Below are positions 2,888 to 22,920 of a stretch of DNA of 32,016 nt, piece after piece (within the stretch, counting starts at the first letter, position 1; every line of letters starts with the position of its first letter). The notes under the pieces are model-generated. The model made no database searches. It worked only from the letters and a program-made list of their open reading frames with translations, and was not told the DNA's origin. The translations under genes and the position numbers were made by a program. This DNA comes from a virus (Duplodnaviria; Heunggongvirae; Uroviricota; Caudoviricetes), in the IMG/VR virus record IMGVR_UViG_2541047849_000007; one strand, given 5' to 3'.

Positions 2888-2901
2888 TGAATGCCTCCCG
2901 G

Positions 2902-3198: not shown

Positions 3199-3207
3199 GC
3201 CGCGCCC

Positions 3208-3480: not shown

Positions 3481-3671
3481 TGCGAGTCCTCCCTGTCAGG
3501 GCGGGAGAATTCCATGACGGGCACGTCTGCCGAAAAATGCTGGCTGCAGTACGGGCAGACCAGGGTGACGCGTACCGCAGGGATGTGGTATTTACCGGAC
3601 ATCACGGCGATGGCGCTGTGAAAACGCAGGGCTGTTATATCCCTCTCGCACTGAATACATTTAAATATCAT
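3477..3671 (-). CDS. Small Zn-ribbon-like protein (64 aa)
   Basis: Two CxxC pairs (CIQC ... CPYC). ATG 3669-3671 with GAGGAG RBS. Confidence 0.5.
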   Translation of the reverse strand: MIFKCIQCERDITALRFHSAIAVMSGKYHIPAVRVTLVCPYCSQHFSADVPVMEFSRPDREDSQ

Positions 3672-3768
3672 GATTTAATTCTCCTCTGTTTCCGGCGTGC
3701 AGAAGCCCGCGGCGCTGACGCCGGAATAAAAAAGAAAATGTTTTTATTAAATAATTAACGTGGTGTGT

Positions 3769-4299: not shown

Positions 4300-4326
4300 A
4301 TTTTATGATTTCTCCGGTTGTGCTGA

Positions 4327-4596
4327 TTACCACAAAGATTCCGGCCACACGACGCGACAGCCGTGCAGTTCGAAAACGCCCTGACGGAAATATCCCCTGT
4401 GGTCATGTCCGGTATACAGATAACAGGCCTTTCCCTGCTCAAGCATGCGCATGCAATGCGCACTCCGGGAAACGCGGATGACAGGTTTGTTACCCCTGAT
4501 GGTGATGCTTTGTACATCCGTGTTCGTCGCCTTAAGCGCCATAATGGCTGACTGCACTTTGCTGATTTGCTGGTTGATACCTGTGGTGGATTTCAT
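4327..4596 (-). CDS. Hypothetical protein (89 aa)
   Basis: ATG 4594-4596 with AAGGAG RBS, immediately after the B stop (TAATAATG). Confidence 0.45.
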   Translation of the reverse strand: MKSTTGINQQISKVQSAIMALKATNTDVQSITIRGNKPVIRVSRSAHCMRMLEQGKACYLYTGHDHRGYFRQGVFELHGCRVVWPESLW

Positions 4597-4598
4597 TA

Positions 4599-5765
4599 TT
4601 AAACTCCTTTGACAACGTCAGCGTTGACCTGTGGAACCCCGATTTCAGCGGCCAGATTCATGGCGGCTATTACCAGGTTACTGACGGCCAGCGGATACAG
4701 CAGGCTGACCATATTTTTACGATGACTTCCCGGATTGCTCAGGCGGGCACGTATGGCATCCACTGCGCTGGCGTCCATAATGTCCGTCAGTTGTTTACCG
4801 GCCCGTTGCAGTTTGAACGTCAGAAATTCTTCAAGGTTATTGTCCAGAGGCAGAAGTTCGACCACCTCACAGCGCTGAACGACTTCACGGACTTCCATAT
4901 TGCGTTCAGACAGTTTTGTCGCCAGTTCCGGCTGGCCAATCAGCACGATGGACAGCAGTTTTTTGAAACCGGACTCCAGCTCAAAAAAGCGTTTGAGGTG
5001 TTTCAGTGTCGGAATGGGCAGACTGTGGGCCTCCTCAATCACCAGAACGTGGCTGAACCCCGCCTGGCTGCTGTCTTTCAGGACGCGATGCAACTGGCGA
5101 AAGCGGGCGTCCTGACTGCGTCTGATGCTTTCCAGTGGTGCGATGGTACTGATAATGGCTTCGGCAATAGCTGCTGCCTTCAGGGTTTTCCCTTTCACAT
5201 CGTTGTCTTCCATAGCGATGATGTATGGCTCGATAACAATTACCGGCGCATTCTCGCGGTTAATACGTTCAGTCAGGTCGCGGCGCAGCGTGGATTTACC
5301 CGCACCGGACTCACCGATGACGGCCATAAACCCACCATGACGGGCTGTCTGGTACAGCGCCTCACGCACGTAGCGAATGTCCGGGGTGGTGAACACATCA
5401 TCAGAACCCTGCATGGCTTCATCGGCGAACGGGTCACGGAAAAGACCAAACGCTTTTTTGGTTGCTGGAAATAACACCTGTTTTTTGAGTAACATATTCT
5501 CTTCCTCACTGAGGCTCGTTTTATCTGTGGTACCCGCTGTACGGGGCGTGGCCGCGCCCTGTACAGCATCAAAACTCTTCGTTGTATCAATCCCCTGACT
5601 TTCCAGCCAGGACGCAAGACGCCGGCGCACTTCTCCGGGGCTGGTGCGGGGCCACGCGTTATGATTCACAATCTGGGCCAGCGTGGCCTCAGAAACATCG
5701 ACAGCTCTCGCCGCCACCGCCTGTGGAATACGGGCCTCTTTCAGTTGCTGCTTCAGTACCAGCAT
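4599..5765 (-). CDS. AAA+ transposition ATPase / target-DNA activator (MuB/TniB-like)
   Basis: Walker A GESGAGKST and Walker B-like VLVIEEAH; N-terminal HTH-like region. Preferred start is ATG 5763-5765 (GAGGAGGG RBS 5 nt upstream) rather than the track start at 5792. Immediately downstream of the transposase. Confidence 0.8.
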   Translation of the reverse strand: MLVLKQQLKEARIPQAVAARAVDVSEATLAQIVNHNAWPRTSPGEVRRRLASWLESQGIDTTKSFDAVQGAATPRTAGTTDKTSLSEEENMLLKKQVLFPATKKAFGLFRDPFADEAMQGSDDVFTTPDIRYVREALYQTARHGGFMAVIGESGAGKSTLRRDLTERINRENAPVIVIEPYIIAMEDNDVKGKTLKAAAIAEAIISTIAPLESIRRSQDARFRQLHRVLKDSSQAGFSHVLVIEEAHSLPIPTLKHLKRFFELESGFKKLLSIVLIGQPELATKLSERNMEVREVVQRCEVVELLPLDNNLEEFLTFKLQRAGKQLTDIMDASAVDAIRARLSNPGSHRKNMVSLLYPLAVSNLVIAAMNLAAEIGVPQVNADVVKGV

Positions 5766-5775
5766 GTTTCCCTCC

Positions 5776-7545
5776 TCAGTTGCCGTTAACAATGCTGATA
5801 ACGCTGCTGCGGGCCGGCGTGGTCAGCGTGGCCATGACTTCATCCAGTGCGGCTTCCGGTACGCCGTCCGGGTACTGTGCTGTTAACTGGCGGTAATGTT
5901 CCGGCGTCCAGGTCAGGCCGTCGGCGCTGAACTTATCGCGCAGGGCTTTCGCGGCCTCCACATGAGTCATGGGACGCTGTTCAGTGCGCGGTCCGCGTAC
6001 GTCAGAGGCCTGACCACGCTTCGGTATACAGGCCGGAAGTGTGGCGTCATCAATATGTTTATACGGGTCAAGCCGCCCGCCGAACGGCAGCGCCTTCGCC
6101 TTGCGTGCGGCAGCTGCATCTGCGGCGTTGTCTGTACCGGTGACCAGCGCTTCGGTTTCTTTTGCCGCCATCTGCGCCGGGGTTTCCGGCAGGGCTTTGT
6201 AACTTTCGCCAAATACCGCCGCGCCTTCAGCAAAGCCAAACTCGTTCTTTCTGACCTCTTCGACCAGGAAGAACGTCTCGTGGCCGTCCTCACCGGTCAG
6301 AACCACCTGTGCCACATCGCTGCGCCACGGGTTACGGGTAATCATCAGTTTTTCACCGACCAGTACGCCCGGTACCGTTGATACGTCAAATTCAGTGCCC
6401 CGGAACGAGACACGAAGTTTTGGCGTGACTTTGCGGAGTTCTGGTGCCGCCACAGCCAGTTCACGACATACCTCAACGGAAGGCGCTTTTTTCAGCTGCT
6501 CAGCAGTAATCTTCAGCCAGATATCCGTGCGGGTTTTACCGTGGCGGCTGTGAACAGCCGTGGCGTTAAAGTGGCTGCGCCATTTCGCGGCCAGCGCGTT
6601 GAGTTCTTCCAGACTGTGAACCGGCCGGAACTTCAGACCCGGCTCCAGCTTGCGTTCGATAATGTCACGCGCCTTTTCCACCTGTCCGGTGGCGCGGGCG
6701 TTATGCGGCTTGTGCGCTATCAGGTCGATGCCCAGTGAGCGGCACATGTTTTTCGTCATACCCGCGGTGTTTGCCGAGCCGGGGTCGAGATAGAGTATTT
6801 TTGGCACGCCGTGCAGCACGTCTGCGCCGCCACGCTCCTGCATGGCGTTGATAAGCACAGAACACAGGTTCTCACCGGATTCCGCACCCGTCACATACTC
6901 AACGTAAATCCAGCCGCTGGCATGGTCGGTAATCTCGTAACTCCACACGCGGTCACTGGCGATACGGGCAAGGTTAGCGGGCTTGTTTTTGTAGAATTTC
7001 GCGCTGTCCATCACCTGCAGCCCTTTATGTCCATTGCTCAGGTAGTAAAGCGTGCAGAGTGAGGCGTCAATCTGCCAGACATGATTGGGGTGCAGACTGG
7101 CCACTTCGGTATGCGGTGCAGGGGCATCCAGTTGTTCCGGGTGCAGGCCATAGTTACGCAGGGCACGACTGATGGCATCTTCGGACAACGGGAAAAACTC
7201 ACCGGTGGTTTCATCTGTTCTGCCTGCGGAGATAAAGCCGTTAGCCCGCAGGGTTTCCACTGCATCCGCGATGGAATAGAGACGCTTACCGTTCTTGCGG
7301 GTGGCCTCACGTAGTGTGGCAGATATCAGCGCGGCTTCGTCGCGGGTCAGGGTGCTGCGTCCGGCATCGGCGCGTTTTTTGCGTTTATCAGTCACAGAGA
7401 CCTCCTTCAGCCTGCGCAGCAGAGTGGCGCGGGACATGCCAAGTTCAGCACAGGCAGCGTCGTATATTGCACCGCGTTTACCATGCCCCGCATTACGTGC
7501 CGCGCGGGCTGTTTCAACAAGTTTTTCAGTCAGTGCCGGGGTCAT
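5776..7545 (-). CDS. DDE transposase (Mu A-like, rve/integrase core)
   Basis: 589 aa. N-terminal HTH region, then a catalytic core with candidate DDE residues (HVWQIDAS ... LYLDPGSANT ... downstream E). ATG 7543-7545. Confidence 0.85.
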   Translation of the reverse strand: MTPALTEKLVETARAARNAGHGKRGAIYDAACAELGMSRATLLRRLKEVSVTDKRKKRADAGRSTLTRDEAALISATLREATRKNGKRLYSIADAVETLRANGFISAGRTDETTGEFFPLSEDAISRALRNYGLHPEQLDAPAPHTEVASLHPNHVWQIDASLCTLYYLSNGHKGLQVMDSAKFYKNKPANLARIASDRVWSYEITDHASGWIYVEYVTGAESGENLCSVLINAMQERGGADVLHGVPKILYLDPGSANTAGMTKNMCRSLGIDLIAHKPHNARATGQVEKARDIIERKLEPGLKFRPVHSLEELNALAAKWRSHFNATAVHSRHGKTRTDIWLKITAEQLKKAPSVEVCRELAVAAPELRKVTPKLRVSFRGTEFDVSTVPGVLVGEKLMITRNPWRSDVAQVVLTGEDGHETFFLVEEVRKNEFGFAEGAAVFGESYKALPETPAQMAAKETEALVTGTDNAADAAAARKAKALPFGGRLDPYKHIDDATLPACIPKRGQASDVRGPRTEQRPMTHVEAAKALRDKFSADGLTWTPEHYRQLTAQYPDGVPEAALDEVMATLTTPARSSVISIVNGN

Positions 7546-7560
7546 AGCTTGTCTTCCCTG

Positions 7561-7878
7561 TTATCCGATTCTGGCGGCAATTTTTCTGGCACGGTCGCGC
7601 AGGGTTTCGCCATCGCAGGTTTTCACCACGTTATTTACCGGTTGCGGCGCAACTGCCGGGCGCAATGCTGACTGATGCTGCAGACGTCTTATCTGCTGCA
7701 TCAGCATCACTTCCATCGTCAGTACAAACGGATGCGCCTCCTGTGCGGGTACGCAGATTTCACCGGAAGGTGTCACCACGCGGAAACCCTGCACCATCTC
7801 CGGCAGCAGATTACACAGTGCGTGCCCCAGTGCCTCCGGGCTGTCCATCAGGATATTTTGTGTGTTATCCGTGTTCAT
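7561..7878 (-). CDS. Hypothetical protein (105 aa)
   Basis: ATG 7876-7878 overlaps the upstream stop (TAATG). No family recognised. Confidence 0.4.
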   Translation of the reverse strand: MNTDNTQNILMDSPEALGHALCNLLPEMVQGFRVVTPSGEICVPAQEAHPFVLTMEVMLMQQIRRLQHQSALRPAVAPQPVNNVVKTCDGETLRDRARKIAARIG

Positions 7879-8795
7879 TACTGCATGCCCTCCGGTCGGT
7901 TGATTTCAGGCTCCGGTTCGGTCAGCCATGCGGGGACATCGTTACCCGATGGTGCGGCATCAAGGTCGAACGTCTCACGCAATGCATGAACACTGCGTTC
8001 AATCTGGCAGACCAGACCGGCCATGAAATCTCTGGGGGTATCAATCATGTTTTTACTGCAGTATTCACACAGGGTTTCAAAGGCACCGGAGAGCCGGACG
8101 GCGATGGCAGATTCCGCCTCAACCGCTAATGCGGTCACTTCCGCCCGCAGCTTCTTCACCTCTTCATCAGGCTCAGGCGGTTGAATACGGGATTTCTTCT
8201 CCAGTTTTGTGGCCAGTTCGTTGATTTTTTCGTCCTTTCCGGCAAGCACCTGTTGCTGAGCTGCGTTAGTTTCGCGCGCTTCACGCAGGGCCTGGCGAAG
8301 TTCACGTACTGACATGCGATCAACATCATCAAGCGTCAGGCCGGCAACTGTGCCGCCGTCGGCCAGTTCGGCAAGGTCTTCATCGTCTTCAGCAACAAGT
8401 TCAAATAATTTTGCCTTACCCAAAAGCGACAACGTTGTCGCTTTTGGCTCTAGTTTTGGTGAAAGGTATTTCAAAGATGCTTTCATCATTCGTTGTGCTG
8501 CGCGCACGTGCAAACCAAGTTGTTCTTCTACAATTCCAACAAAGTCCCCGTGTGGCTCATTTTCTTTTAAGATGATCAGCCGTTTACCCGCTTCCAGCAT
8601 AGATTCAGCACTCTGCGCCATATAAAAACGTGCTTCGTGAACGATGCGATCACGTTCATAAGGCAGTCCATCACCAAACTGCTGCATGATCTCCATGCGA
8701 TGCTGTGTCATGGCATTCAGGCTGACGTTGAGATCATCCGACAGCGGTACCTCGGCGTTCAGTTCAGTGTTAACCGGTGATTTGGTGCGTCCCAT
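7878..8795 (-). CDS. Hypothetical protein (305 aa), acidic coiled-coil C-terminal half; possibly DUF3102-like
   Basis: ATG 8793-8795 with AAGGAG RBS. Family assignment is tentative and from memory only. Confidence 0.45.
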   Translation of the reverse strand: MGRTKSPVNTELNAEVPLSDDLNVSLNAMTQHRMEIMQQFGDGLPYERDRIVHEARFYMAQSAESMLEAGKRLIILKENEPHGDFVGIVEEQLGLHVRAAQRMMKASLKYLSPKLEPKATTLSLLGKAKLFELVAEDDEDLAELADGGTVAGLTLDDVDRMSVRELRQALREARETNAAQQQVLAGKDEKINELATKLEKKSRIQPPEPDEEVKKLRAEVTALAVEAESAIAVRLSGAFETLCEYCSKNMIDTPRDFMAGLVCQIERSVHALRETFDLDAAPSGNDVPAWLTEPEPEINRPEGMQ

Positions 8796-8805
8796 TGATT
8801 ACTCC

Positions 8806-9120
8806 TTACAAACGACTACCTGAAATGACACGTTGGTTGATTTCGTTAATGCGATCCTGTGCACGTGCCATCTCGTTACTGTGGGCCATGGCGATCTGCA
8901 GCAACTGGATGCCCGGTGCGAAACGCCCGTTTTCCAGTTTCAGGGCCAGTCCTTCTTCAATGAGGGTGTTGAGTGCCCGGTTGATGTTTGCCGGTGACTC
9001 GTGCAGTGCTGCCGCCAGTTCACCATTGGAAATACCGTTCAGGGCATGACCGCGCAGCGCTTTGAGTACCCGGAGGATGCGACTGCCGGAGCTTGAAACA
9101 TTCGTCTTACTCATCTGCAT
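8806..9120 (-). CDS. Winged-helix DNA-binding regulator (putative)
   Basis: ILRVLKALRGH ... ISNGELAAALHESPANINRALNTLIEEGLA resembles MarR/IclR-type winged HTH. An alternative start at ATG 9112-9114 has better GAGG spacing. Confidence 0.5.
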   Translation of the reverse strand: MQMSKTNVSSSGSRILRVLKALRGHALNGISNGELAAALHESPANINRALNTLIEEGLALKLENGRFAPGIQLLQIAMAHSNEMARAQDRINEINQRVISGSRL

Positions 9121-9166
9121 ACCTCTTTTGCGATATGTGATAACCTTTTACAAAGAATCAAAATAT

Positions 9167-9355
9167 TCAGGCTGCCTGAGCTGTTGATTTCAGCCCCAGT
9201 TTCACGGCGATTTCATGGGATTTACCGTAACGTGCTTTGCTCTGCCCATTGAGAACGCGGTATACCTCATTGCGGTTGTAGCCGTTTTCTTCTGCCCAGC
9301 GGGTGAAAGTGATCCCGCGCTGGCGGAAGAGAGCTTTGACTTGTTCTGCAGTCAT
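9167..9355 (-). CDS. ner: Ner-like DNA-binding protein (first gene of early operon)
   Basis: 62 aa. RYGKSHEIAVKLGL resembles the Mu Ner/Nlp C-terminal helix region. AAGGAG RBS. Sits directly downstream of a strong sigma70-like promoter and diverges from the repressor gene. Confidence 0.55.
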   Translation of the reverse strand: MTAEQVKALFRQRGITFTRWAEENGYNRNEVYRVLNGQSKARYGKSHEIAVKLGLKSTAQAA

Positions 9356-9402
9356 CGTTGTCTCCTTTGTTGATGCAATGATGTTTGCCTTATGTGTGAT
9401 AG

Positions 9403-9431
9403 ATTATGGTGCAGATTATCTCACCAGTCAA
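9403..9431 (-). promoter_or_regulatory. Early promoter (Pe-like) with overlapping putative operator repeats
   Basis: On the minus strand: TTGACT (-35; plus 9426-9431), 17-nt spacer, CATAAT (-10; plus 9403-9408). Direct repeats AGATTAT at about 9401-9407 and 9413-9419 overlap the -10 and spacer. Confidence 0.5.
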
Positions 9432-9455
9432 CTTAAAGAGTGCAGAAAAACTCAC

Positions 9456-9794
9456 ATGATCGGGTTACGTATTAAAGAAGAAAGAGAGCGTCTATCTCTT
9501 ACACAGCAAGGGTTGGCTGATGCTATCGGTGTGGCAAAGAGAACTTTTATTGATTGGGAAAAAGATCGCACTTCTCCTACTGCAGTGCAGTTATCTGCAC
9601 TATCAGAAATCGGTGTAGATGTTTTGTATGTAGTTACTGGGGTGCGGAGTCAGCCTGTTGTTGCACCTTATATGTCACAAGAAAAGAAAGAGTTAATGGA
9701 TGCATTCGACGAGATGAGCCCCGAACAACGGAGGGCAATTCTTGAGGTCGGCAAAGTCTTCATTCAACCCAAACCAAGCAAACTCGCAGGCTGA
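9456..9794 (+). CDS. XRE-family HTH repressor (lysogeny repressor candidate)
   Basis: ATG 9456. Classic HTH_3 region LSLTQQGLADAIGVAKRTFIDWEKDRTSP. Divergent from the early operon. The track ORF begins at an upstream GTG inside ner and is not preferred. Confidence 0.7.
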   Translation: MIGLRIKEERERLSLTQQGLADAIGVAKRTFIDWEKDRTSPTAVQLSALSEIGVDVLYVVTGVRSQPVVAPYMSQEKKELMDAFDEMSPEQRRAILEVGKVFIQPKPSKLAG

Positions 9795-9880
9795 TTCTGA
9801 CCTGGACAGAAAGGACAGGTGGTTGATCTGGATGCTTTCAGAAAACGCCGTCAGTAGCATGGCAGAAATCGGCGGGCTTA

Positions 9881-9914
9881 CCGGAAAGCACTGTACTTTC
9901 CGGTTATGGCTTTT
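9881..9914 (+). terminator. Rho-independent terminator after repressor gene
   Basis: CCGGAAAG-cactgta-CTTTCCGG (8-bp perfect stem) followed by TTATGGCTTTT. Also sits at the 3' end of the convergent dam gene. Confidence 0.55.
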
Positions 9915-10677
9915 AGAAATTGCAGATCACCAGCTCACGGCGTGGAGTTGATTTGCCTGCCAGACTGTAGTTGATGTTCACTGTCTGTATGTTCAGTCCA
10001 GTGAACACCTCGCGCATCTGCGGGATGTCGTTCACCGAAATTATCATCTTTCCTCTGATGCACCGGGCCAGCTCTGCCAGCCGCGAGTAGTTCCCTTCAG
10101 GAAAATCCACACCATAGCCTTCTGTACCCAGATACGGCGGGTCACAGTAGAACAGCGTGTGCGGACGGTCATAGCGCTCAATGCACTGTTGCCAGTCCAT
10201 GTGTTCTATCACCGTTCTGGAAAGCCGCAGGTGTGCCGCTGACAGTTCTTCCTCGATACGCAGCAGGTTGAAGCGTGGCGGGGATGTGGTGGAGGTGCCG
10301 AAGCTGTGCTCTGCCACCTTGCCGCCAAACGCCTGCTTCTGGAGGTAGTAGAACCGTGCTGCACGCTGGATATCCGTCAGTGTTTCTGTCGGGGTGATCT
10401 GCAGCCATTTGTAGATCTGCCGGCTGACCAGCGCCCATTTGAACTGGCGGACAAATTCTTCCAGATGATGTTTTACCACCCGATACAGATTTACCAGTTC
10501 ACCATTGATATCGTTAATGACTTCGAGCTTACCAGGTGTCTTAAGAAAATAGAGCGCTGCTGCGCCGCAGAACGGCTCCACGTAACATTCATGCGCCGGA
10601 AACAGCGGCAGGATGTGTTTTGCCAGGCGACGTTTGCCACCAATCCATGGAACGATGGGTAATGTCTGCATTTTCAT
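9913..10677 (-). CDS. dam: DNA N6-adenine methyltransferase (Dam/D12 class)
   Basis: 254 aa. Motif I region VEPFCGAAALYF and catalytic motif IV DPPY (FYCDPPYLGTEGYG). Confidence 0.85.
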   Translation of the reverse strand: MKMQTLPIVPWIGGKRRLAKHILPLFPAHECYVEPFCGAAALYFLKTPGKLEVINDINGELVNLYRVVKHHLEEFVRQFKWALVSRQIYKWLQITPTETLTDIQRAARFYYLQKQAFGGKVAEHSFGTSTTSPPRFNLLRIEEELSAAHLRLSRTVIEHMDWQQCIERYDRPHTLFYCDPPYLGTEGYGVDFPEGNYSRLAELARCIRGKMIISVNDIPQMREVFTGLNIQTVNINYSLAGKSTPRRELVICNF

Positions 10678-10869
10678 AATCTGTAAGCCTTTTACAATTA
10701 TTAAAAATATGGCAGGCTAGTCTGGTCTCGCGAGACTGACTGAACCCCGGTCGGCTCACAGCGCATTCCTGTGGGACGATGGCCAGCCCGGTGGGTCCGA
10801 AGCACCGGGCTGGTCGTTCTTTCATGATGCGGCAGGGATGAAGTGATTTCTGTTAATGTGGTTTAGGGA

Positions 10870-11085
10870 TTATCCGGGGCGATTTTCTGACCTTATCTGG
10901 TCCAGGGCATAAGTGATCCCTTCTGCAAAAACAGAAGTATCAAACTGCTTTTGTATTTCCTGAAAATGAACAGTGGCACGACAGACACTCAGTTCTCCGC
11001 GATGTAACCGGATAATATCTTCCAGAACATTGTTCACTGCTTCGGCACGGCGCTGATGTTCTGTTAACGTTAATCGGGGATTCAT
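10870..11085 (-). CDS. Hypothetical protein (71 aa)
   Basis: ATG 11083-11085 with AAGGAG RBS 7 nt upstream. No family recognised. Confidence 0.5.
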   Translation of the reverse strand: MNPRLTLTEHQRRAEAVNNVLEDIIRLHRGELSVCRATVHFQEIQKQFDTSVFAEGITYALDQIRSENRPG

Positions 11086-11462
11086 GATGCACTCCTTAAA
11101 TGATGATTTTTATGTACTCACCGGCAAAATATTCTGCCGATTACTGAACACGCATCCGGCTCCTCAGGTTTTGATTTATTCTGGTTTTTTCGATATCCCG
11201 GACCAGGTTGATCACGACAGAAAAAGTGCCGGTATTTTATTGATACGCTGATATGGCTTCGGGATAACAGCTATATTCGTTACTCTCAGTTGCTGGCTGT
11301 GGGAGCGGCTGATGTCGTCCTCACGGAAAAAACGCTCTGTCTGCTCAATGCCATGCCGACCTTTCTGCAGCCCCGGCCCGTACCATTTAAAGAGTCACTT
11401 CTGGATGCAGTAAAAACCGGTGAAAATGCAGTCATCGCTGAATGCGTATCCCGGATTATGCG

Positions 11463-12011
11463 TTACGTGTTTAATGAACGTAAGTGAGGTTTATCCGCTG
11501 TCTGCATAATCCCGATAGCCAGTGCGAGGGGAAGCAATTCCGGGGAAACTCTTTCAAACAGCGATTCCCATTCTCCTCTCGCCATCACTCTGTCCAGCCC
11601 GCCCTCCAGCTGCATTTCAGCAATCTTCCTGATTTCCCGGAACAACGCCGCTTTGATCTCTTCATGCTCAGCTTTATTTTCCGGTGTCAGAATGTATTCG
11701 TCGAAGAACCGGGGAGGCTGGTTAACGGGGGGCATGTTCACCGGGATGTGTTCCTGTATCCCGTACTCCGGGGCTGAAAAACATTTTGTTGTCTGACCGG
11801 TGAGTTTGCGTAACACCTTCATGAGTTGCTCCTGAAGCAGCTCATTCGTCCGACAGATACGCTCGTCGTCCACAACTGCGGCATCGACAATGACGCTTTT
11901 TCCAAATTCCTTTTTCACCATCTCTTTTATACGCGTCAGAACGTAACTTTTACCGCTGCCTACAGGCCCGGACACTCTGACGGTGATGGTCGGCTTCGGT
12001 GTGACTGTCAT
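11463..12011 (-). CDS. P-loop NTPase, small kinase-like fold (unknown substrate)
   Basis: Preferred start ATG 12009-12011 (AAGGAG RBS 7 nt upstream), giving about 182 aa. Walker A GPVGSGKS sits about 15 aa from the N-terminus, followed about 25 aa later by VIVDAAVVDDE, as in small nucleotide kinases. Confidence 0.55.
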   Translation of the reverse strand: MTVTPKPTITVRVSGPVGSGKSYVLTRIKEMVKKEFGKSVIVDAAVVDDERICRTNELLQEQLMKVLRKLTGQTTKCFSAPEYGIQEHIPVNMPPVNQPPRFFDEYILTPENKAEHEEIKAALFREIRKIAEMQLEGGLDRVMARGEWESLFERVSPELLPLALAIGIMQTADKPHLRSLNT

Positions 12012-12039
12012 TCTGTATCTCCTTTGTGAGTGATCCAGC

Positions 12040-12354
12040 GTGTATTCTGCATACCCCGAACACGCCTCTCTCTTAACGCGCTTTAAAATCCTCCGCGCCA
12101 CGCTTTTGCCATGCTGTCTCCACACAACAAGGAGACATTTTCATGAAACCATTCACTTCCCTTACCCGGACACCACGCAACTGGAACTGCGCCGTGAGCT
12201 TGATTACCTGGCAGATCGCAAAATGGTGGAACTGGAGAGGAGACCGTCCGGTGACTGGTTTGCCGATCTGAGTCGCCTTGGTGTGGATATTGTGGAATAC
12301 ACCGTGGAATGCGGCCCCGGTATTGCCCGCCCGGAAAAATACTGGAGTGAGTGA
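12040..12354 (+). CDS. Hypothetical protein, start undetermined (possible frameshifted gene)
   Basis: Protein-like reading frame runs to a TGA 2 nt before the terS ATG, but has no in-frame ATG with an RBS. The only ATG with a strong RBS (AAGGAGA, ATG 12143) is in the adjacent frame and gives a 42-aa Trp-rich product. Confidence 0.3.
   Translation: MYSAYPEHASLLTRFKILRATLLPCCLHTTRRHFHETIHFPYPDTTQLELRRELDYLADRKMVELERRPSGDWFADLSRLGVDIVEYTVECGPGIARPEKYWSE
12066..12090 (+). promoter_or_regulatory. Candidate late promoter motif, copy 1 (head of late operon)
   Basis: CTCTCTTAA-cgcg-CTTTAAAATC. Shares the TCTTAA-N4-CTTTAA(A/T)ATC pattern with sites at 23227 and 29577. About 50 nt upstream of the first late-operon RBS. 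Confidence 0.4.
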
Positions 12355-12356
12355 TT

Positions 12357-12899
12357 ATGGGACGTCGCAGCAGCATTGATTCTCTGCCGAAGGAGGTCCG
12401 TCGCTGGCTTGAGCGGGCACTGACGGAGAATAATTTCACCGGCTATGCAGAGCTTGAAAGTCTGTTGAAGGAAAAGGGGTACAGCATCACCCGCTCTTCC
12501 CTGCAGCGGTTTGGCTACAAAATGGAGCAGCAACTGGCCCGTGTGCGGGCGGCAACCGAGGCAGCGCGTCTGCTTGCCCGGGAGGCCGGAGACGATCCTG
12601 ATGACCGTTCAGCCGGACTGATAACCCTCGTCCAGACCGAAATGACGGATATCCTGATGCGCCTGCAGGAGTCGCGGGAAAACGACGATCCCTTCGCCCG
12701 GGCAAAACTGCTGGCAACGGCTTCAAAAAATATCGCCACACTGACCCGCGCCTCGGTCAACCTCAAGCGCTATCAGGCAGAAGTCAGAGAGAGGGTTGAA
12801 CGTGCTGCCGCTGCCGCCGAGAAAATTGCCCGTAAGGGCGGGCTCTCTGCGGAAGCCGTACAGGCACTGCGCCGGGAAATTCTGGGGGTGGCGTCATGA
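12357..12899 (+). CDS. Terminase small subunit (Mu gp27-like)
   Basis: 181 aa from ATG 12357. Positioned immediately upstream of, and overlapping (ATGA), the large terminase gene. N-terminal region resembles Mu gp27. Confidence 0.65.
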   Translation: MGRRSSIDSLPKEVRRWLERALTENNFTGYAELESLLKEKGYSITRSSLQRFGYKMEQQLARVRAATEAARLLAREAGDDPDDRSAGLITLVQTEMTDILMRLQESRENDDPFARAKLLATASKNIATLTRASVNLKRYQAEVRERVERAAAAAEKIARKGGLSAEAVQALRREILGVAS

Positions 12900-14419
12900 C
12901 GGAGCTGCCGCCGCACATTCCTGACACCGCGAGTTATGAGACACCGCCGGTTCTGTTGCCTTACCAGCAGCGCTGGGTGGCAGATACCTCTCCGCTTAAG
13001 GTGATGGAAAAGAGCCGTCGTACCGGTATTACATGGGCTGAGGCATCCGATAACGTACTGACCGCAGCCTCTTCTGCGCCTGCAGGCGGGATGAATGTGT
13101 ATTACATCGCCTATAACCAGGATATGACCGTCGAATACATTCAGGCGTGTGCGATGTGGGCGCGGGCATTCAACTATGCGGCCAGTGAAATTGAAGAAGG
13201 ATTCTGGGAGGAGGACGACGACGATAAACACATCAGGACTTACACCATCAAATTTCCTGACTCCGGCTTTCGCATTGTCGCGCTCTCCAGCCGCCCGTCT
13301 AACCTGCGTGGCCGTCAGGGTATTATTGTTATCGACGAAGCGGCGTTCCATGAGCAACTGGACGAACTGCTGAAAGCGGCGCTGGCGATGCTTATCTGGG
13401 GGGGCAAGGTACGCGTTATCTCCACCCATGACGGTGACGACAATCCATTCAGTACGCTTATCGGAGATATCCGTGCCGGACGTCAGGGAGGCAGCGTACA
13501 TCGCATCACTTTCCGGGAAGCCGTATCTGAGGGGCTGTTCCAGCGCGTTTGTCTGCGCACCGGGAAGGAATGGTCGGAGGCATCCGAGCTGGCCTGGATG
13601 GCGTCGGTGTACAAATTCTACGGTGCCGGCGCATCCGAAGAGCTTGACTGTATTCCGGCCAACGGTGGCGGTGCCTGGCTGTCCCGTGCCCTGATAGAGT
13701 CCCGAATGTCCGCTGATACGCCAGTATTGCGTCTGACCTGCAAGGAAGGTTATGAACTGCTGTCTGATGAGGTTCGCTTCCACGAGACACAGGACTGGCT
13801 TGATGAGCATCTGAAACCCTTGCTGGAGGCACTCCCCACTGATGCCCGCTCTTTCCTGGGGCGCGACTTTGGTCGCAGCGGTGATTTGTCGGTGGACTAT
13901 CCCCTGCTGCAGGAGAAGAACCTGGTACGACGCGTGCCATTCGTACTGGAGCTGCGTAACGTGCCGTTCAGACAGCAGGAGCAAATCACCTGGTATCTGA
14001 TGGATGGCCTGCCCGGTCTGCTGGGTGCAGCATTTGATGCCCGTGGTAATGGTGCCTATCTGGCTGAATACGCCATGCAGCGCTACGGCTCCAGCCGGGT
14101 TCAGCAGGTGATGCCAACCGAAGGCTGGTACCGGGAGCATATGCCTCCGGTCAAAGCTGCACTGGAAGACGGTAACCTGCTGGACTTACCAAAAGATGAA
14201 GACACACTGGATGACCTGCGGGCCGTTCAGGTGGTGAACGGTGTCCCCCGCGTGCCGGAACAACGCTCAAAAGCAAAGGCTGATGGTGGTAAACGCCACG
14301 GGGATTCAGCCATCGCACTGGCGCTGGCGTATTTCGCCAGCCGTGAAATTAACAAAGGGCCGGTGAAGGCAAGCTCACGACGTCGTCGTCAGGCGGCCCG
14401 TATGCTGGAGGGATTCTGA
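12896..14419 (+). CDS. Terminase large subunit (Mu gp28-like)
   Basis: 507 aa. Size, position and acidic nuclease-like C-terminal half fit a Mu-type large terminase. Confidence 0.8.
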   Translation: MTELPPHIPDTASYETPPVLLPYQQRWVADTSPLKVMEKSRRTGITWAEASDNVLTAASSAPAGGMNVYYIAYNQDMTVEYIQACAMWARAFNYAASEIEEGFWEEDDDDKHIRTYTIKFPDSGFRIVALSSRPSNLRGRQGIIVIDEAAFHEQLDELLKAALAMLIWGGKVRVISTHDGDDNPFSTLIGDIRAGRQGGSVHRITFREAVSEGLFQRVCLRTGKEWSEASELAWMASVYKFYGAGASEELDCIPANGGGAWLSRALIESRMSADTPVLRLTCKEGYELLSDEVRFHETQDWLDEHLKPLLEALPTDARSFLGRDFGRSGDLSVDYPLLQEKNLVRRVPFVLELRNVPFRQQEQITWYLMDGLPGLLGAAFDARGNGAYLAEYAMQRYGSSRVQQVMPTEGWYREHMPPVKAALEDGNLLDLPKDEDTLDDLRAVQVVNGVPRVPEQRSKAKADGGKRHGDSAIALALAYFASREINKGPVKASSRRRRQAARMLEGF

Positions 14420-15915
14420 TGGCAAAAGGTATCTGGGTTTCACCCGATGAGTTCGTGGCGTTTGCCGAACCCAAAAAGTCACTGACCGCGCAGATTGCCT
14501 CCCGCAGCCGCGCCATCGACTTTTACGCTCTGGGAATGTACCTGCCCAACCCTGATCCCATTCTCAAGGCTCAGGGACGGGATATCCGTATCTACCGCGA
14601 ACTGCGCACCGACCCGCTGGTCGGGGGCTGTATCCGCAGACGTAAAGCAGCGGTCAAATCGCTGGAACGTGGACTGGAGCGCGGTCACGCTTCTGCCCGG
14701 GTCTTCCGTTTCATCCGCGACATGCTCGACGATCTGGATCTGTCCCGCATCATCGGTGAGATGAGCGATGCCGTGCTCTACGGGTATCAGCCCTGTGAAA
14801 TCATGTGGGGCCGTTCGGTCAGGGCGTGGGCGGTGACGGATATTGTCGGCAAACCGCCTGAGTGGTTTCAGTTTGATACGGACAACTGCCTGCGCTTCCG
14901 GGCTCGTGATGCGGGTGTGGAGGGTGAGCTGCTGTCACCGTCAAAATTCGTGGTGCCGGCACAGGATGCCTCGTATGACAATCCTTACGGTTTCCCGGAC
15001 CTGTCCATGTGCTTCTGGCCGGTCGCCTTCAAGAAAGGCGGGATGAAATTCTGGCTCCGCTTTGCCGAAAAGTTTGGCTCCCCCTGGGTCATCGGTAAGC
15101 ACCCGAGGGGTGCAAATGATGCAGAGATTGAAAAACTGCTGGACTCCATGGAGCAGATGGTGGAGGACGCGGTGGCCGCCATCCCTGATGACAGCAGCAT
15201 CGAACTCAAAGCAGCGGATGGCAAGGCGGACAGCAGCGAGGTATTCCGCGAGCTGATCACACTGTCACGCAGTGAGATCTCCATTGCATTACTCGGTCAG
15301 AATCAGACCACGGAAGCGAACAGTAACAAGGCCTCTGCACAGGCCGGGCTGGAGGTGACGGCTGATATCCGCGATGCGGATGCGGACATCATTCAGGCGG
15401 CAGTGAATCAGGTCATAAGAACGGTGGTCACCCTGAACTTCGGCGATGTGCCGTGTCCGGTCTGGGCCATGTGGGAACAGGAGGCCATTGATGACACCCG
15501 TGCCACCCGCGATGAAAAACTCACCCGGGCGGGTCTGCGTCTGACCCCGCAATACTTCAAGCGTGAGTACCAGCTGCAGGACGGCGATATTGACGAGACA
15601 CCACCGTCAGAATGCGAGAAGAACATGCTGCCGCTGTCATTTGCCGAGGCGATTGATGCCGATATTCAGGCTCAGCAGCAGCTTGACGACGCGCTGGACA
15701 TTCTGATGAACGGAGGTGTGTTAAATGGCACGCTGGAACCCGTCCTGGCACCTCTGTTCAGACGGGTCGAAAACGGGGTTAACCCGACTGAGCTGCTGGG
15801 CGAACTGGCGGAGCTCTACCCTCAGATGAACACGGACGATCTGCAGGAGCGGCTGGCCCGTATTCTCTTTGTGGCAAATATCTGGGGGCATCTGCATGAG
15901 CGTGACAACGGCTGA
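14419..15915 (+). CDS. Portal protein (Mu gp29-like, DUF935)
   Basis: 498 aa immediately after the large terminase (TGATG overlap), the standard position for a Mu-like portal. Confidence 0.8.
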   Translation: MAKGIWVSPDEFVAFAEPKKSLTAQIASRSRAIDFYALGMYLPNPDPILKAQGRDIRIYRELRTDPLVGGCIRRRKAAVKSLERGLERGHASARVFRFIRDMLDDLDLSRIIGEMSDAVLYGYQPCEIMWGRSVRAWAVTDIVGKPPEWFQFDTDNCLRFRARDAGVEGELLSPSKFVVPAQDASYDNPYGFPDLSMCFWPVAFKKGGMKFWLRFAEKFGSPWVIGKHPRGANDAEIEKLLDSMEQMVEDAVAAIPDDSSIELKAADGKADSSEVFRELITLSRSEISIALLGQNQTTEANSNKASAQAGLEVTADIRDADADIIQAAVNQVIRTVVTLNFGDVPCPVWAMWEQEAIDDTRATRDEKLTRAGLRLTPQYFKREYQLQDGDIDETPPSECEKNMLPLSFAEAIDADIQAQQQLDDALDILMNGGVLNGTLEPVLAPLFRRVENGVNPTELLGELAELYPQMNTDDLQERLARILFVANIWGHLHERDNG

Positions 15916-16717
15916 ACTGGCGTACTGCATGACGCTTCCCCCGAAGCGGGCAGTCAGCTACCTGAAGTCCAAAGGGTATCAGATTACCTGGGACCAGGAA
16001 GAAATGTGGCAGGACGCCCATGCCCGCGCCTTTACCGTCGCTAAAGTGACCCGCCTGGATATTCTGGAAGATATTCGCGGGACACTGCAGCAGGCTGTTG
16101 ATGAAGGAAAAACCGATCGCTGGTTCCGGCAGGAGCTGGAGCCGGCGCTGAAGCGCAGGGGATGGTGGGGACCGCGTGACACGACTGACCCGGTAACGGG
16201 TGAGCCGGTCACCATTCAGCAGGGCAGTCCGTGGCGGCTCGATACCATCTTTCGCACCAATATGTCCGTACTCTACAGCGCCGGTCGTTGGGCGGAGCAG
16301 ATGGAAAACGTCGACGACAGGCCGTACTGGATGTATACCGGCATCAACGACAGCCATACCCGCAGGAGCCATCTGGCGCTGCATGGTCTGGTGCTGCGCT
16401 GGGATGACCCGTTCTGGCAGGCATTTTACCCGCCGAACGGCTGGCGCTGCCGCTGTAGTGTGATTGCCCTGAGTGCGGCGGATGTACGTGCCCGTGGCCT
16501 GAAGGTTATCAGCTCCGGCTCTGCCATGGGCCAGGAACTGAAACTGGTCTCAGAGAAAACCGGCGAAATGTGGAACGTGGCCACCTTTAATACCGGCACC
16601 ACGAAGGTGACCACCGACGTCGGCTGGTCTTATGCACCGGGGGCAGCATACCGTCCCGACCTGGCCCGCTATCAGGGTACGCTTCAGCCACTGGCACAAC
16701 AGGAACTGAGAGGATAA
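15896..16717 (+). CDS. Head morphogenesis protein (Mu F / gp30-like)
   Basis: About 273 aa from ATG 15896, overlapping the portal end. Position and content fit the Mu F family. Confidence 0.7.
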   Translation: MSVTTAELAYCMTLPPKRAVSYLKSKGYQITWDQEEMWQDAHARAFTVAKVTRLDILEDIRGTLQQAVDEGKTDRWFRQELEPALKRRGWWGPRDTTDPVTGEPVTIQQGSPWRLDTIFRTNMSVLYSAGRWAEQMENVDDRPYWMYTGINDSHTRRSHLALHGLVLRWDDPFWQAFYPPNGWRCRCSVIALSAADVRARGLKVISSGSAMGQELKLVSEKTGEMWNVATFNTGTTKVTTDVGWSYAPGAAYRPDLARYQGTLQPLAQQELRG

Positions 16718-16719
16718 CA

Positions 16720-17178
16720 ATGGCTTCCGATAACCTGGTCAGTGTCACCATTAATGATAAATCCCTGCGCCGGAGCCTCCGTGCGCTGGATCTGGCTGCC
16801 ACAGACATGGAGCCTGCGATGCGCAAAATCGCCGGAACCCTGCTGGCGGAAACACAGTTTAACTTTCTTGATGAGGGGCGTCCGGGGTGGATGCCCTCGC
16901 TGGCAGCGGAAGAACGTAACGGACAGACACTGCAGGATACCGGGCGTCTGATGGGGTCAGTATCAACCGAGCATGACGACCGGCAGGCTGTTGTGGGGAC
17001 CAACGTTGTTTACGGTGCCATTCACCAGTTCGGGGGTAAAACGGGGCGTAATGAGTCTGTTGAACTTCCGGCCCGCCCGTTCCTGCCGGTGACGGAGGAT
17101 GGAGAGCTACAGCCTGAAGTGGTAGTCCCCATCCTCGATACCATTGTCCGCCATCTTGAAGCAGCGGCCCGTCGCTGA
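16720..17178 (+). CDS. Virion morphogenesis protein (Mu G-like)
   Basis: 152 aa; position and size match Mu G. GAGAGGA RBS. Confidence 0.65.
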   Translation: MASDNLVSVTINDKSLRRSLRALDLAATDMEPAMRKIAGTLLAETQFNFLDEGRPGWMPSLAAEERNGQTLQDTGRLMGSVSTEHDDRQAVVGTNVVYGAIHQFGGKTGRNESVELPARPFLPVTEDGELQPEVVVPILDTIVRHLEAAARR

Positions 17179-17318
17179 GTTTTCTCTCTTCAGGCGGGTG
17201 ATTTATCATTGCCAGCGAATGAGGGGCTGTATTACCTTTATAAAGGCTTTACAGCCTCTGTTTTATAACTGCCTCCGGTTCACCACATTGCTTTCCCTGT
17301 CCTTCTCCCCTGATGTTT

Positions 17319-17337
17319 TCTAAAGCAGATTAAAATC
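17319..17337 (+). promoter_or_regulatory. Candidate late promoter motif, copy 2 (upstream of I; weaker match)
   Basis: TCTAAA-gcag-ATTAAAATC about 55 nt upstream of ATG 17393. One base shorter than the other copies. Confidence 0.3.
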
Positions 17338-17392
17338 GCCGGGCCCGCATTTCTCACAAACTGTCTCCGACAACATAACGCGGGACAGCAAA

Positions 17393-18508
17393 ATGTCAGC
17401 CATTCACATTTTTAAAGCCGGTACTCATACCGATATGCACGGCAAAAAACTGCCGTTCACGCCAGACGATCTTGCCGCCTGCGTGAAAGCCTATGACCCG
17501 TCCGTCCATGAAGCACCACTCGTGATTGGTCATCCCAGAACGGAAGACCCGGCGTGGGGCTGGGTGAAAGCCCTGTCGCTCAGCGGCGTCGATCTGATGG
17601 CAGAGCCTGCCCAGCTGGACCCGCAGTTTGCTGAGATGGTCACCGACGGACGATTCAAAAAAGTGTCTGCCTCTTTCTACCTCCCGGATTCACCGTCCAA
17701 TCCGAAGCCCGGCGTGCTCTACCTGCGCCATGTGGGCTTTCTTGGGGCACAGCCACCTTCCGTCAAAGGACTGAAACAGGTGTCCTTCAGTGAGCAGGAA
17801 GAAGGTGTGGTGGAGTTCGCCGACTGGCAGGCCATCACGAATGCCTCACTGTGGGGAAAGCTGCGCGATTTTCTGATCGCCCGCTTCAGTCTGGACGAAG
17901 CAGAAAAAGTTCTGCCGGAATGGCAGCTCAACAGTCTGCGCGAAGAGGCGTACCGCGACACACCGTCGCAGGATGCAGCAGGTGCGCAATTCAGTGAGAC
18001 AGGCCAGGTGCCGTCTTCCGCAAGTAACGAGGAATCATCGATGACAAAAGAAGAGATTGAAGCCCTTCAGGCGGAGAACCGCCGCCTGAAGCAGCAGGCT
18101 GCTGATCGCGATGCGCGTGATGCACAGGTCAGACAGGAGCAACTGCATAAGGACAATGTGGCCTTTGCAGAAAAACTGGTCGCAGAGGGCCGTCTGGCTC
18201 CCCGCGCCTCCTCCGTGGTGGTTGCCCTGCTGGATGCCGTCGCCGGTGGCGACAAGCCGGTGGAGTTTGCTGAGGGGGAAAGCCGCACACCGCTGGCCAC
18301 CGCCTTCCGTTCGCTGCTCTCCGACGGGGAGCCGGTGATGAACTTCGCCGAACAGGCCACGAAGGAGCGTGTCGGCGACACGGTGAAAGTGGATGTGACG
18401 GAGTTTGCAGAAGCCGACCCTGACCGTCTGGCACTGCACCAGAAGGCTGTGGAACTGTCGAAAAAAGAAGGCATCAGCTATGAGGCTGCTGTCACACGCT
18501 GCCTGTAA
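17393..18508 (+). CDS. Head protease/scaffold protein (Mu I-like)
   Basis: 371 aa with a coiled-coil, acidic C-terminal half (scaffold-like). Located between the G-like and major capsid genes as in Mu. Confidence 0.75.
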   Translation: MSAIHIFKAGTHTDMHGKKLPFTPDDLAACVKAYDPSVHEAPLVIGHPRTEDPAWGWVKALSLSGVDLMAEPAQLDPQFAEMVTDGRFKKVSASFYLPDSPSNPKPGVLYLRHVGFLGAQPPSVKGLKQVSFSEQEEGVVEFADWQAITNASLWGKLRDFLIARFSLDEAEKVLPEWQLNSLREEAYRDTPSQDAAGAQFSETGQVPSSASNEESSMTKEEIEALQAENRRLKQQAADRDARDAQVRQEQLHKDNVAFAEKLVAEGRLAPRASSVVVALLDAVAGGDKPVEFAEGESRTPLATAFRSLLSDGEPVMNFAEQATKERVGDTVKVDVTEFAEADPDRLALHQKAVELSKKEGISYEAAVTRCL

Positions 18509-18517
18509 GGAGAAAGC

Positions 18518-19471
18518 ATGTCTGATTACTTAAAAAATAAACGCGTTGTTGATCCTGTTATGACCAGCATCGCGCGTGGCTACAGGAATGCAGCCTTCAT
18601 CGGAGAACATATATTTCCGGTTGTGTATACGGACAGAGAAGCGGTAACGGTCCCCGTTTTCGGGAGATCAGCGTTTGTGGAAGTTGATACCGTCCGTGCT
18701 GTGGGGGCAGACAGTAATGTTCTGATCAGGGAAAAGAGCAGTACGCTGGATCTGGTGTTGCATGAGCACGATCTTGCTGCACCTGTGGACTACCGTGAAC
18801 AGACGGAGTCAATGTTCAACGAAGAGGCCAAGGCAATCCGGCGGGTGACAAATGGCATTCATCTTCGCCGTGAGCTTATTGCTGCCCGTCTTGCGCAGGA
18901 CAAAAAAGTGTACCCGGCATCTTCGGTAAAGACGATGACGTCTGTTGAACGCTGGGAAGGAGGCCATGGTGATCCTGTTGAGGTCATTGAGGGAGGCATT
19001 GAAGCTGTGCGAAGTAAGATCGGGGTCAGACCCAATCTGATGGTCATGGGAGCCAGTGTGATGCCCCTGCTGAGATATCATCCAGCCATCACCACTGCTC
19101 TGGGACTTAATGAGAGAAAACGGATCACCCCGCAAATCCTCAGGGAGCTTTTTGGTCTGGACAAGGTCATTGTGGGTGAGCCTGTTTCCATGGCATCCAT
19201 GACTGATGCAGGCAACCGGAACAAATATCCGGTGGACATCTGGGGAGATAATCTCATGCTCTTCTATGTCACTCCACCGCGAGAAGGTGCCGAAAGTGCC
19301 GACGAAAATGAACCATCGTTCGGGTATACCCTGCGACGTAAGGGGATGCCGGTGGCAGATAAATACGATGGAGTGGGCGGAAAGGTGAAGTACTGCCGTT
19401 ATACCGACATCTATAAGGTGGCGGTCGTGGGCGGGGATGCCGGTTATCTCGTTACAAATATAGTGAAGTAA
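18518..19471 (+). CDS. Major capsid protein (Mu T-like)
   Basis: 317 aa with a strong RBS (AAGGAGA), following the protease/scaffold gene. Confidence 0.8.
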   Translation: MSDYLKNKRVVDPVMTSIARGYRNAAFIGEHIFPVVYTDREAVTVPVFGRSAFVEVDTVRAVGADSNVLIREKSSTLDLVLHEHDLAAPVDYREQTESMFNEEAKAIRRVTNGIHLRRELIAARLAQDKKVYPASSVKTMTSVERWEGGHGDPVEVIEGGIEAVRSKIGVRPNLMVMGASVMPLLRYHPAITTALGLNERKRITPQILRELFGLDKVIVGEPVSMASMTDAGNRNKYPVDIWGDNLMLFYVTPPREGAESADENEPSFGYTLRRKGMPVADKYDGVGGKVKYCRYTDIYKVAVVGGDAGYLVTNIVK

Positions 19472-19481
19472 GGAGAAGTCT

Positions 19482-19817
19482 ATGACTACACAGCAGGTCA
19501 CTCTGACCATGACAGTCACAGCCAGTACTGCACTTACTCAGCAGAGGTTTGTGGGAGCAGATAACGGCGCATGTAAGCAGGGTGCCGTTGCCGTCGGTGT
19601 CGCCCAGGTGGATGCCCGTGCAGGTGATCTGACCCCGGTGAGTGTGACCGGGATCCTTGCAGTTGAAACGGGAGCGGCAGTTTCCAGAGGGGCACTGGTA
19701 CAGTCTGATGCCAAATCAAGGGCTGTTCCTCAGGCTGACAGTGGTAAATCCTGTGGCATTGCACTGGATGAGGCAAAGGCCGAAGGCGACATCATCCGTA
19801 TCCTGCGCGGGGTGTGA
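19482..19817 (+). CDS. Hypothetical head-associated protein (111 aa)
   Basis: AAGGAG RBS. Ala/Gly/Val-rich. Position after the major capsid gene suggests a decoration or head-completion role. Confidence 0.5.
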   Translation: MTTQQVTLTMTVTASTALTQQRFVGADNGACKQGAVAVGVAQVDARAGDLTPVSVTGILAVETGAAVSRGALVQSDAKSRAVPQADSGKSCGIALDEAKAEGDIIRILRGV

Positions 19818-19818
19818 G

Positions 19819-20265
19819 ATGTACTGCACCCTGGAGGATTTGCTTGCGCAGGTGCCGGAACGAACGCTGATCGAGCTCACCAGTGAAGATATGGACTTCG
19901 ACTCGCCTGCAACAGTGAATACCCGTGTGGTGGACAGCTGTATCCGCTATGCCGACGAGCTGATTGATGCCCATCTGCGCGGACGCTATATCCTGCCGCT
20001 GGCGGAGATACCGACCGTTCTGCGGGACATTGCCATCACGCTGGTCCGTTACCGGCTCTACGCCCGCCGCCCGGAAGGTGACCTCCCGGATACGGTGAAG
20101 GATGACCACAAAGAAGCGCTGCGGCAACTCAGGGAGTTACGTGATAACAGGCTCACGCTGGGGCTGCCGTCCACTCAGAAAGATGTGCCTGAGCCAGGAG
20201 AGTTTCGTGTACGCAGTCGCCCGGCCACTTTCGGCGGTCGTGACGGTTTACTGGAGAAATACTGA
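19819..20265 (+). CDS. Head-tail connector/completion protein (Mu gp36-like, DUF1320)
   Basis: 148 aa from ATG 19819; size and position fit Mu gp36. Confidence 0.55.
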   Translation: MYCTLEDLLAQVPERTLIELTSEDMDFDSPATVNTRVVDSCIRYADELIDAHLRGRYILPLAEIPTVLRDIAITLVRYRLYARRPEGDLPDTVKDDHKEALRQLRELRDNRLTLGLPSTQKDVPEPGEFRVRSRPATFGGRDGLLEKY

Positions 20266-22918: not shown

Positions 22919-22920
22919 CG

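Follow-up and report, generated by a model that had tools for sequence, protein, structure and literature searches.

Defective prophages that arose by internal deletion include Rac, DLP12 and e14 of E. coli K-12, as well as the Mu 'X' mutants that survive induction. In phages of the BcepMu/KS10 type, the lysis cassette comprises the gp21 holin and gp22, an endolysin with an SLT domain (PMC2628397). Intact relatives of the prophage described here resemble that cassette, with a Holin_2-3 holin, an SLT lysin and spanin-type genes placed before a terminase of the gp27/gp28 type. The prophage itself differs from it: the window (the whole 32,016-nt stretch of DNA analysed, IMG/VR record IMGVR_UViG_2541047849_000007) has just seven holin codons and apparently no functional cassette.

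The 99.99%-identical prophage of E. coli Ec1117, at 1617100-1654860 of NZ_CP126602.1, encodes a DDE transposase, a MuB-like ATPase, Gam, a Mor-family activator and head genes of the Mu gp27/terL/portal/F kind, together with a P2-like tail and a Gin-like invertase. With Pfam matches to Phage_Mu_Gp27, Portal_Mu and Phage_Mu_F in the E. coli KOEGE 7 locus, the gene set is that of a BcepMu/Mu-like phage. The insertion sites differ by strain (between the glpQ side and inaA in Ec1117, inside ssuB in E. coli SK1144), and such varied chromosomal sites fit transposition and not site-specific integration. The window departs from the classical Mu layout in showing the BcepMu-type inversion of early versus late genes: the early genes (transposase, Gam, Mor and others; 1-12011) run leftward and the late genes (12143-32016) rightward from a central control region.

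Two reading frames overlap where the rightward genes begin. The ATG at 12143, 7 nt downstream of a Shine-Dalgarno sequence AAGGAGA, opens a frame of 42 codons (product MKPFTSLTRTPRNWNCAVSLITWQIAKWWNWRGDRPVTGLPI; TGA at 12269-12271) in which five of the 42 residues are tryptophan. The longer frame is at -1 relative to this ATG (12040 mod 3 = 1; 12143 mod 3 = 2). This frame has no stop from 12040 as far as a TGA at 12352-12354, leaves 2 nt before the terS ATG at 12357, and is protein-like from about 12163 on (...YPDTTQLELRRELDYLADRKMVELERRPSGDWFADLSRLGVDIVEYTVECGPGIARPEKYWSE). The public annotation begins this 104-aa ORF at GTG 12040; neither that codon nor the other two in-frame starts, TTG 12106 and ATG 12223, is preceded by a Shine-Dalgarno sequence. 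No slippery heptamer of the form X XXY YYZ, nor any XXXYYY run, was found in 12143-12271. The initial annotation had described the same elements (AAGGAGA and an ATG opening a Trp-rich 42-aa frame, a protein-like -1 frame reaching terS with no credible start, and no -1 slippery heptamer in the overlap), and all of them are present as described. Its readings of the two frames also held: the short frame is non-coding, a holin start read on into out-of-frame codons of another gene, and the long frame is real coding sequence deprived of its own start, namely codons 41-103 of a 103-aa winged-helix gene. That the region is the head of the late operon is borne out by the gene order of intact relatives.

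The anomaly itself is, on comparison with those relatives, the junction of two different genes at 12163-12164 and not a local frame problem inside one gene. Window positions 11316-12164 are 100% identical to positions 1-849 of the Ec1117 locus (L001), and 12163-12600 are 100% identical to L001 3001-3438. Along the whole 32 kb, the window and the Ec1117 prophage are 99.99% identical in two colinear blocks, split only by a gap of 2,153 bp that begins in codon 8 of the holin and reaches codon 40 of the 103-aa winged-helix gene (phrog_436). The deletion may be placed in L001 in any of three registers (848-3000, 849-3001 or 850-3002). A colinear intact locus with exact flanks on both sides of the gap thus exists, and conserved essential parts of both genes are gone, with 7 of 116 holin codons left and residues 1-40 missing from the winged-helix protein. 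We consider it almost certain that one deletion of 2,153 bp, in a BcepMu-like prophage carried by E. coli KOEGE 7 (16a), produced the frame anomaly. The deletion call draws on the deposited assembly and on the same ORF in a Logan-derived contig that may stem from the same reads. What is established is the deletion with both its endpoints, which genes were lost, and that the arrangement is a singleton. The features concerned are collected in Table 1.

Table 1. Features at and around the deletion junction, in window coordinates; L001 is the locus of the intact Ec1117 prophage.
Feature	Position	Strand	Description
Divergent gene, 182 aa	11463..12011	-	phrog_3787 (E=5.9e-89); P-loop GPVGSGKS; intact
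Intergenic region and lysis/late-operon leader	12012..12142	+	100% identical to L001 697-827
Annotated 104-aa GTG ORF	12040..12354	+	ERB06718.1 / WP_021547580.1, 'hypothetical protein G879_02243'
Hairpin TGTCTCC / GGAGACA	12115..12137	+	7 bp, 9-nt loop; fold -13.5 kcal/mol, z=-2.7
Holin Shine-Dalgarno AAGGAGA	12129..12135	+	same place before the annotated holin CDS in L001, L002 and L003
Holin remnant	12143..12164	+	start codon, codons 2-7 (MKPFTSL) and 1 nt; corresponds to L001 828 on
Chimeric 42-aa ORF	12143..12271	+	7 holin codons, then 35 out-of-frame codons of the winged-helix gene
Deletion junction	12163..12164		TA microhomology common to both parental sites
3' remnant of the 103-aa winged-helix gene	12163..12354	+	codons 41-103 and stop; identical to L001 3001-3192; no start codon
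Small terminase-like gene terS (Mu gp27 / DUF3486)	12357..12899	+	intact; own GGAG upstream
Large terminase gene	12896..14419	+	intact; phrog_2 (E=1.3e-37); colinear with Ec1117

The proposed course of the event is simple. Illegitimate recombination at the 2-nt TA microhomology would have brought codon 7/8 of the holin up against the winged-helix codon for Tyr41, and this one step would have taken out the remaining holin sequence together with the endolysin gene, the two spanin-type genes and winged-helix codons 1-40. The holin ATG is out of frame with the retained 3' part because the length of the deletion, 2,153 = 3n+2, adds to an original offset of one frame. A ribosome that loaded at the holin RBS would then terminate at 12271 after a nonsense peptide of 42 aa, and the protein-like frame downstream would have no start of its own. 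The event was probably recent, since the remaining 32 kb differ from the intact relative by three SNPs (two synonymous and one S263A in the tape-measure gene), none of them disruptive. The result is an ordinary prophage-decay pseudogene, neither ribosomal recoding nor sequencing error, and a new instance of a well-known kind of event.

On the left, the deletion spared the boundary of the late-operon control region, formed by the 182-aa divergent gene, whose product is identical to WP_021537374.1 of Ec1117 (L001 148-696). A search of the leader for sigma-70 consensus promoters returned zero promoter-like sites in 12012-12142, and because the leader is without such a promoter, late and lysis transcription presumably depends on an activator, Mor; the same prophage encodes a Mor-family protein. 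The hairpin in the leader may serve in translational control of the holin. Its 3' arm holds the holin Shine-Dalgarno sequence, and the stem is invariant and the loop variable in the diverged loci L001, L002 and L003. To the right of the junction, terS matches Pfam Phage_Mu_Gp27 (E=6.4e-51) and phrog_426, terminase small subunit; it would keep its own RBS and lose any translational coupling to the gene upstream.

Position 12143 of the window corresponds to L001 828, the start of a 'putative holin' (WP_021537375.1) in Ec1117. That intact protein matches Pfam Holin_2-3 (E=1.7e-41, profile over residues 16-116) and phrog_1528, holin. Holin_2-3 (PF13272) comprises proteins of the full length of about 116 aa with transmembrane domains, of which MKPFTSL alone survives in the window. 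ATG 12143 and its RBS are thus the orphaned native start of the holin. The intact late/lysis operon runs in the order holin, SLT endolysin, Rz-like spanin, lipoprotein, 103-aa winged-helix protein, terS and terL; in E. coli Ec1117, E. coli SK1144 and Klebsiella phage KP12 alike, a holin, an SLT lysin, two more genes and the 103-aa gene stand before terS. The holin and the 103-aa gene lie about 2.15 kb apart in intact relatives, with three further lysis genes between them: the endolysin (phrog_669), the Rz-like spanin (phrog_1403) and the lipoprotein (phrog_462), which is probably the outer spanin. As judged from its gene content, the KOEGE 7 prophage should no longer be able to lyse its host, and without help it would not be expected to release virions. 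With the whole lysis cassette gone from a transposable prophage that is otherwise pristine, the strain offers a snapshot of the first step of inactivation.

The second truncated gene encodes a conserved protein. Intact, it matches phrog_436 (E=5.7e-40) and has no Pfam match, and in an alignment of 28 diverse family members the mean column identity is 73%. Homology in the window begins 120 nt into the 103-aa gene of the best-matching genomes. Seven invariant residues (R8, E10, R13, W14, L20, P25 and E30) fall inside the missing residues 1-40, so that the window, with residues 41-103 only, falls short of the phrog_436 type, which is characterised by a length of about 103 aa and by two helices at the N terminus that bear these invariant positions. 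An AlphaFold2 model of the intact protein (pLDDT 86.9, pTM 0.76) contains helices at 4-23, 30-40 and 46-58, strands at 62-66 and 72-76, and a helix at 78-87. Foldseek aligned it with winged-helix domains of the MarR, PadR, HosA and MukE/F types at a TM of about 0.6. By its predicted fold the protein is a winged helix: it shares with MarR/PadR- and MukE/F-type domains the predicted order H-H-H-beta-beta (TM about 0.6 to 8xzu, 9gm7_D, 6pco and 2obp) and differs from them in sequence, with identities of only 12-19%. According to the model, the deletion would take helices 1-2 and leave helix 3, the wing and the C-terminal helix. The remnant is probably not made, or would be non-functional if made.

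Variants of the 103-aa protein were also encountered. Two of them, P0020 (63 contigs) and P0038, are frameshifted near the 3' end of the gene; the shift of the P0020 type falls at the A5 run at 12335-12339, and the shifted frames read on over the start of terS. These may be real alleles or errors. Elsewhere in the window, the tail-assembly-chaperone gene (23300-23635) is followed by an unannotated gap of 157 nt, and an overlapping +1 (= -2) ORF extends to 23717 (...LLARWFRFQPGEIDALDTDDLEMWLEQAEEQIKSEYGDKS*). It is probably the conserved frameshift extension of the chaperone; no canonical heptamer was found, and a G5 run lies at 23624-23628.

The junction is confined to one strain. The 104-aa ORF forms a singleton protein cluster, found only in E. 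coli KOEGE 7 (16a), assembly GCA_000459575.1, on scaffold KE701198.1, where the locus is identical to window positions 8040-16354; it is recorded under NCBI and Logan sources on two contigs, the second of 20-50 kb. No gene for the 42-aa product is recorded in public assemblies. By comparison, 799 contigs carry an exact copy of the intact 103-aa protein, whose 90% cluster has 304 members across the Enterobacteriaceae. When window positions 11900-12500 were used as a megablast query against 5,426 complete E. coli genomes, none (0/5,426) shared the junction; all matches started at 12163 and none covered the whole query. The exact junction 42-mer had no matches among species-representative genome contigs, a collection low in E. 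coli strain diversity. Two further patterns gave no matches in collections with little E. coli strain diversity: 'not-C + TACCCGG...' in viral, genome and metagenome contigs, and the left-retaining pattern in viral contigs; negatives from such collections weigh little. The arrangement is a private, recent mutation of one strain and not a conserved feature. The deletion may have arisen during laboratory culture, an origin in keeping with a junction known from a single strain.

A rival reading is a misjoin in the draft assembly, in which the 2,153 bp are present in the strain and were merely dropped by the assembler. The source is a 2013 short-read draft scaffold, and the junction is in no complete genome, as a misjoin would have it. 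However, the overlap of only 2 nt gives a de Bruijn assembler no repeat to collapse, no run of N marks the junction, and the same 104-aa ORF also came from the Logan assembly and from the second contig. Similar clean junctions occur, moreover, in other strains, one of them a complete genome. We therefore regard a misjoin as very unlikely and retain the deletion as real.

Still less credible is the reading of the annotated 104-aa GTG ORF as a genuine new fusion gene. It has an open frame of 104 codons and a place in GenBank and RefSeq, yet GTG 12040 is without a Shine-Dalgarno sequence, and the first 41 codons extend, out of frame, over the region of the divergent promoter, the hairpin of the leader and the start of the holin. 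The ORF is also a singleton, and its N-terminal 41 aa stand in for helices 1-2 and the seven invariant residues. The 104-aa 'hypothetical protein' WP_021547580.1 is an artefactual gene call. An unusual start codon, which the initial annotation had offered as one of the simplest explanations, fails likewise: there is no such start, and the two frames come from two genes.

The other simple explanation put forward there was an indel, as a pseudogene or as a sequencing error. The pseudogene part stands; the single-base or homopolymer indel does not, because both flanks are 100% identical to an intact prophage. An error inside one gene could be sought in the A3 run at 12146-12148, just after the ATG, where one extra A puts the ATG into the long frame. 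Yet this run belongs to the identical flank and to the native holin start ATGAAACCA, the 'gene' so restored would be a holin/winged-helix chimera found nowhere else, and the true winged-helix start lies 120 nt before the junction, within the segment that is missing here; we give such an error practically no weight. The alignment with orthologous prophages was decisive: the orthologues include no gene in a single frame that a one-base change would bring back, and the same two-frame arrangement with a short first ORF was not seen in the orthologous loci, which hold five separate genes. Programmed -1 ribosomal frameshifting from the 42-aa ORF into the long frame, rightly rated less likely from the outset, has a strong RBS and an ATG in a frame overlapped by a protein-like -1 frame to recommend it, and can be dismissed as wholly improbable, given that there is no slippery heptamer, that the arrangement occurs in one strain only and is not conserved, that the frames come from different genes brought together by deletion, and that the fused product would be without half of the predicted winged-helix fold.

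A single deletion between the holin and the winged-helix gene thus remains the preferred reading. It carries a lesson for annotation: where an ATG with a strong RBS does not match the frame of a protein-like ORF, the cause can be a large deletion that has brought two genes together and not a local frameshift.

The site of the break deserves separate comment. One TA(C), in the codon for Tyr41 of the 103-aa gene, is the breakpoint of three kb-scale rearrangements that arose independently in different E. coli lineages (window 12163-12165, equivalent to L001/L002 3001-3003; L006 5349-5350; L011 6061-6063). Each has an overlap of 2-3 nt, TA(C), and all three partner sites contain TTA. Besides the KOEGE 7 deletion, one of them gives rise to a 179-aa protein, P0126, which came up in a homology search with the 103-aa protein and in which a complete holin of the SK1144 allele continues in frame into winged-helix residues 41-103 (YPDTTQ...); its DNA is represented by 14 contigs from several samples (L006 5001-5540; also L007-L010). 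This is a 1,825-bp deletion that shares its right-hand nucleotide with the deletion in the window, again with a TA overlap, and that starts on the left at the TA within the stop codon of the holin. Some of the P0126 contigs bear extra deletions of 6.5 kb and 14.5 kb, the picture of a defective prophage lineage decaying stepwise. The remaining case came from a 120-nt probe centred on the breakpoint and run on complete E. coli genomes, of which 157 have the site. It is unbroken in 156 of these; in the other, 20AR0300, the left side is kept (...GCCATCTAC, followed directly by GCGAG...) and a TAC overlap connects it with a gene of the Gp37 family, across a deletion of roughly 8.1 kb in the downstream direction.

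Several causes of a shared breakpoint were considered. Common ancestry of the junctions was rejected: the haplotype flanking the P0126 junction departs from the window's own within 21 nt of that junction, and 20AR0300 keeps the opposite side. A pseudo-site for a Gin-like invertase was rejected as well. Serine invertases of the Gin/Cin type act at 26-bp sites with half-sites of the AAACC-NN-GGTTT type and the same central dinucleotide in both partners; the prophage's own gix-type sites have an AA/TT core (TTCTCCTAAACC-AA-GGTAATTGAGGA at L004 3452, partner near 1851), whereas the hotspot and its three partners have a TA core and no half-site similarity. A pseudo-end for the Mu-type transposase found no support, the prophage ends (TGCAAATGAAGGG...) being unlike the breakpoint site. 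A restriction-type cut at CCSGG (exactly TA/CCCGG) was rejected as the cause of site specificity, there being 150 such sites in the prophage; those nearest to the left breakpoints of events 1 and 2 are 180 and 104 nt away. The hairpin GTGTCC-N14-GGACAC at the site is a weak candidate, with the breakpoints in its loop and not at its base. Insertion and later excision of an IS element found no IS-occupied allele among the 157 complete genomes.

A further parallel is the central strong gyrase site (SGS) of Mu and gyrase-mediated illegitimate recombination, which the present case resembles in that one internal endpoint of a Mu-like prophage is reused with 2-3 nt of homology. It differs from the Mu SGS in position, at 39% of the prophage length and not at its centre. 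Scored against a crude consensus of the 130-bp gyrase motif, for which a PFM is published (Table DS10 of PMC6379681), the hotspot reached a z of about 2, which does not stand out from background; the Mu SGS used as a control reached only 1.5-1.9, and many other positions scored higher. In the 103-aa gene at large, homologues derived from metagenomes (P0053, P0048, P0049, P0036, P0019, P0046, P0056, P0138, P0148 and P0026) show many small in-frame deletions and a few chimeras with scattered breakpoints; either the gene is unusually prone to rearrangement or these variants are misassembled. That the TA(C) at Tyr41 is a site-specific fragile or strand-exchange site, for example a place of protein-linked breakage such as a strong gyrase cleavage site, or a recombinase target, is conceivable, and we think it rather unlikely. 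A breakpoint hotspot at TA is suggestive but unproven, and at present a statistical oddity, because other breakpoints and microhomologies occur (other deletions in the same defective lineage have different, longer microhomologies) and because the site was picked post hoc. If it were true, BcepMu-like prophages would have, in the loss of their lysis module, a recurrent way into domestication that is favoured by mechanism.

Deletion as such is a familiar fate in this group. The related defective loci L007 and L008 have undergone further stepwise deletions mediated by microhomology, which is a common mode of decay in this prophage family. The SK1144 prophage, otherwise intact, carries a truncated tape-measure pseudogene (L012 28503-31268), and decay by deletion is therefore common among these prophages.

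Two comparisons with known systems place the locus. With the chaperone frameshifts of lambda (G/GT) and P2 (E/E+E') it shares overlapping frames at the start of a block of late genes and an RBS on the upstream frame; it differs from them in having no slippery site and no conservation, and in that its frames come from unrelated genes. With the cryptic prophages Rac, DLP12 and e14 the likeness goes further: a block of lytic-cycle genes has been lost by a clean deletion at a short microhomology, leaving truncated ORFs and an orphaned start. The difference is one of stage, the KOEGE 7 prophage standing at the very first step of decay, with one deletion that specifically removes the complete lysis cassette.
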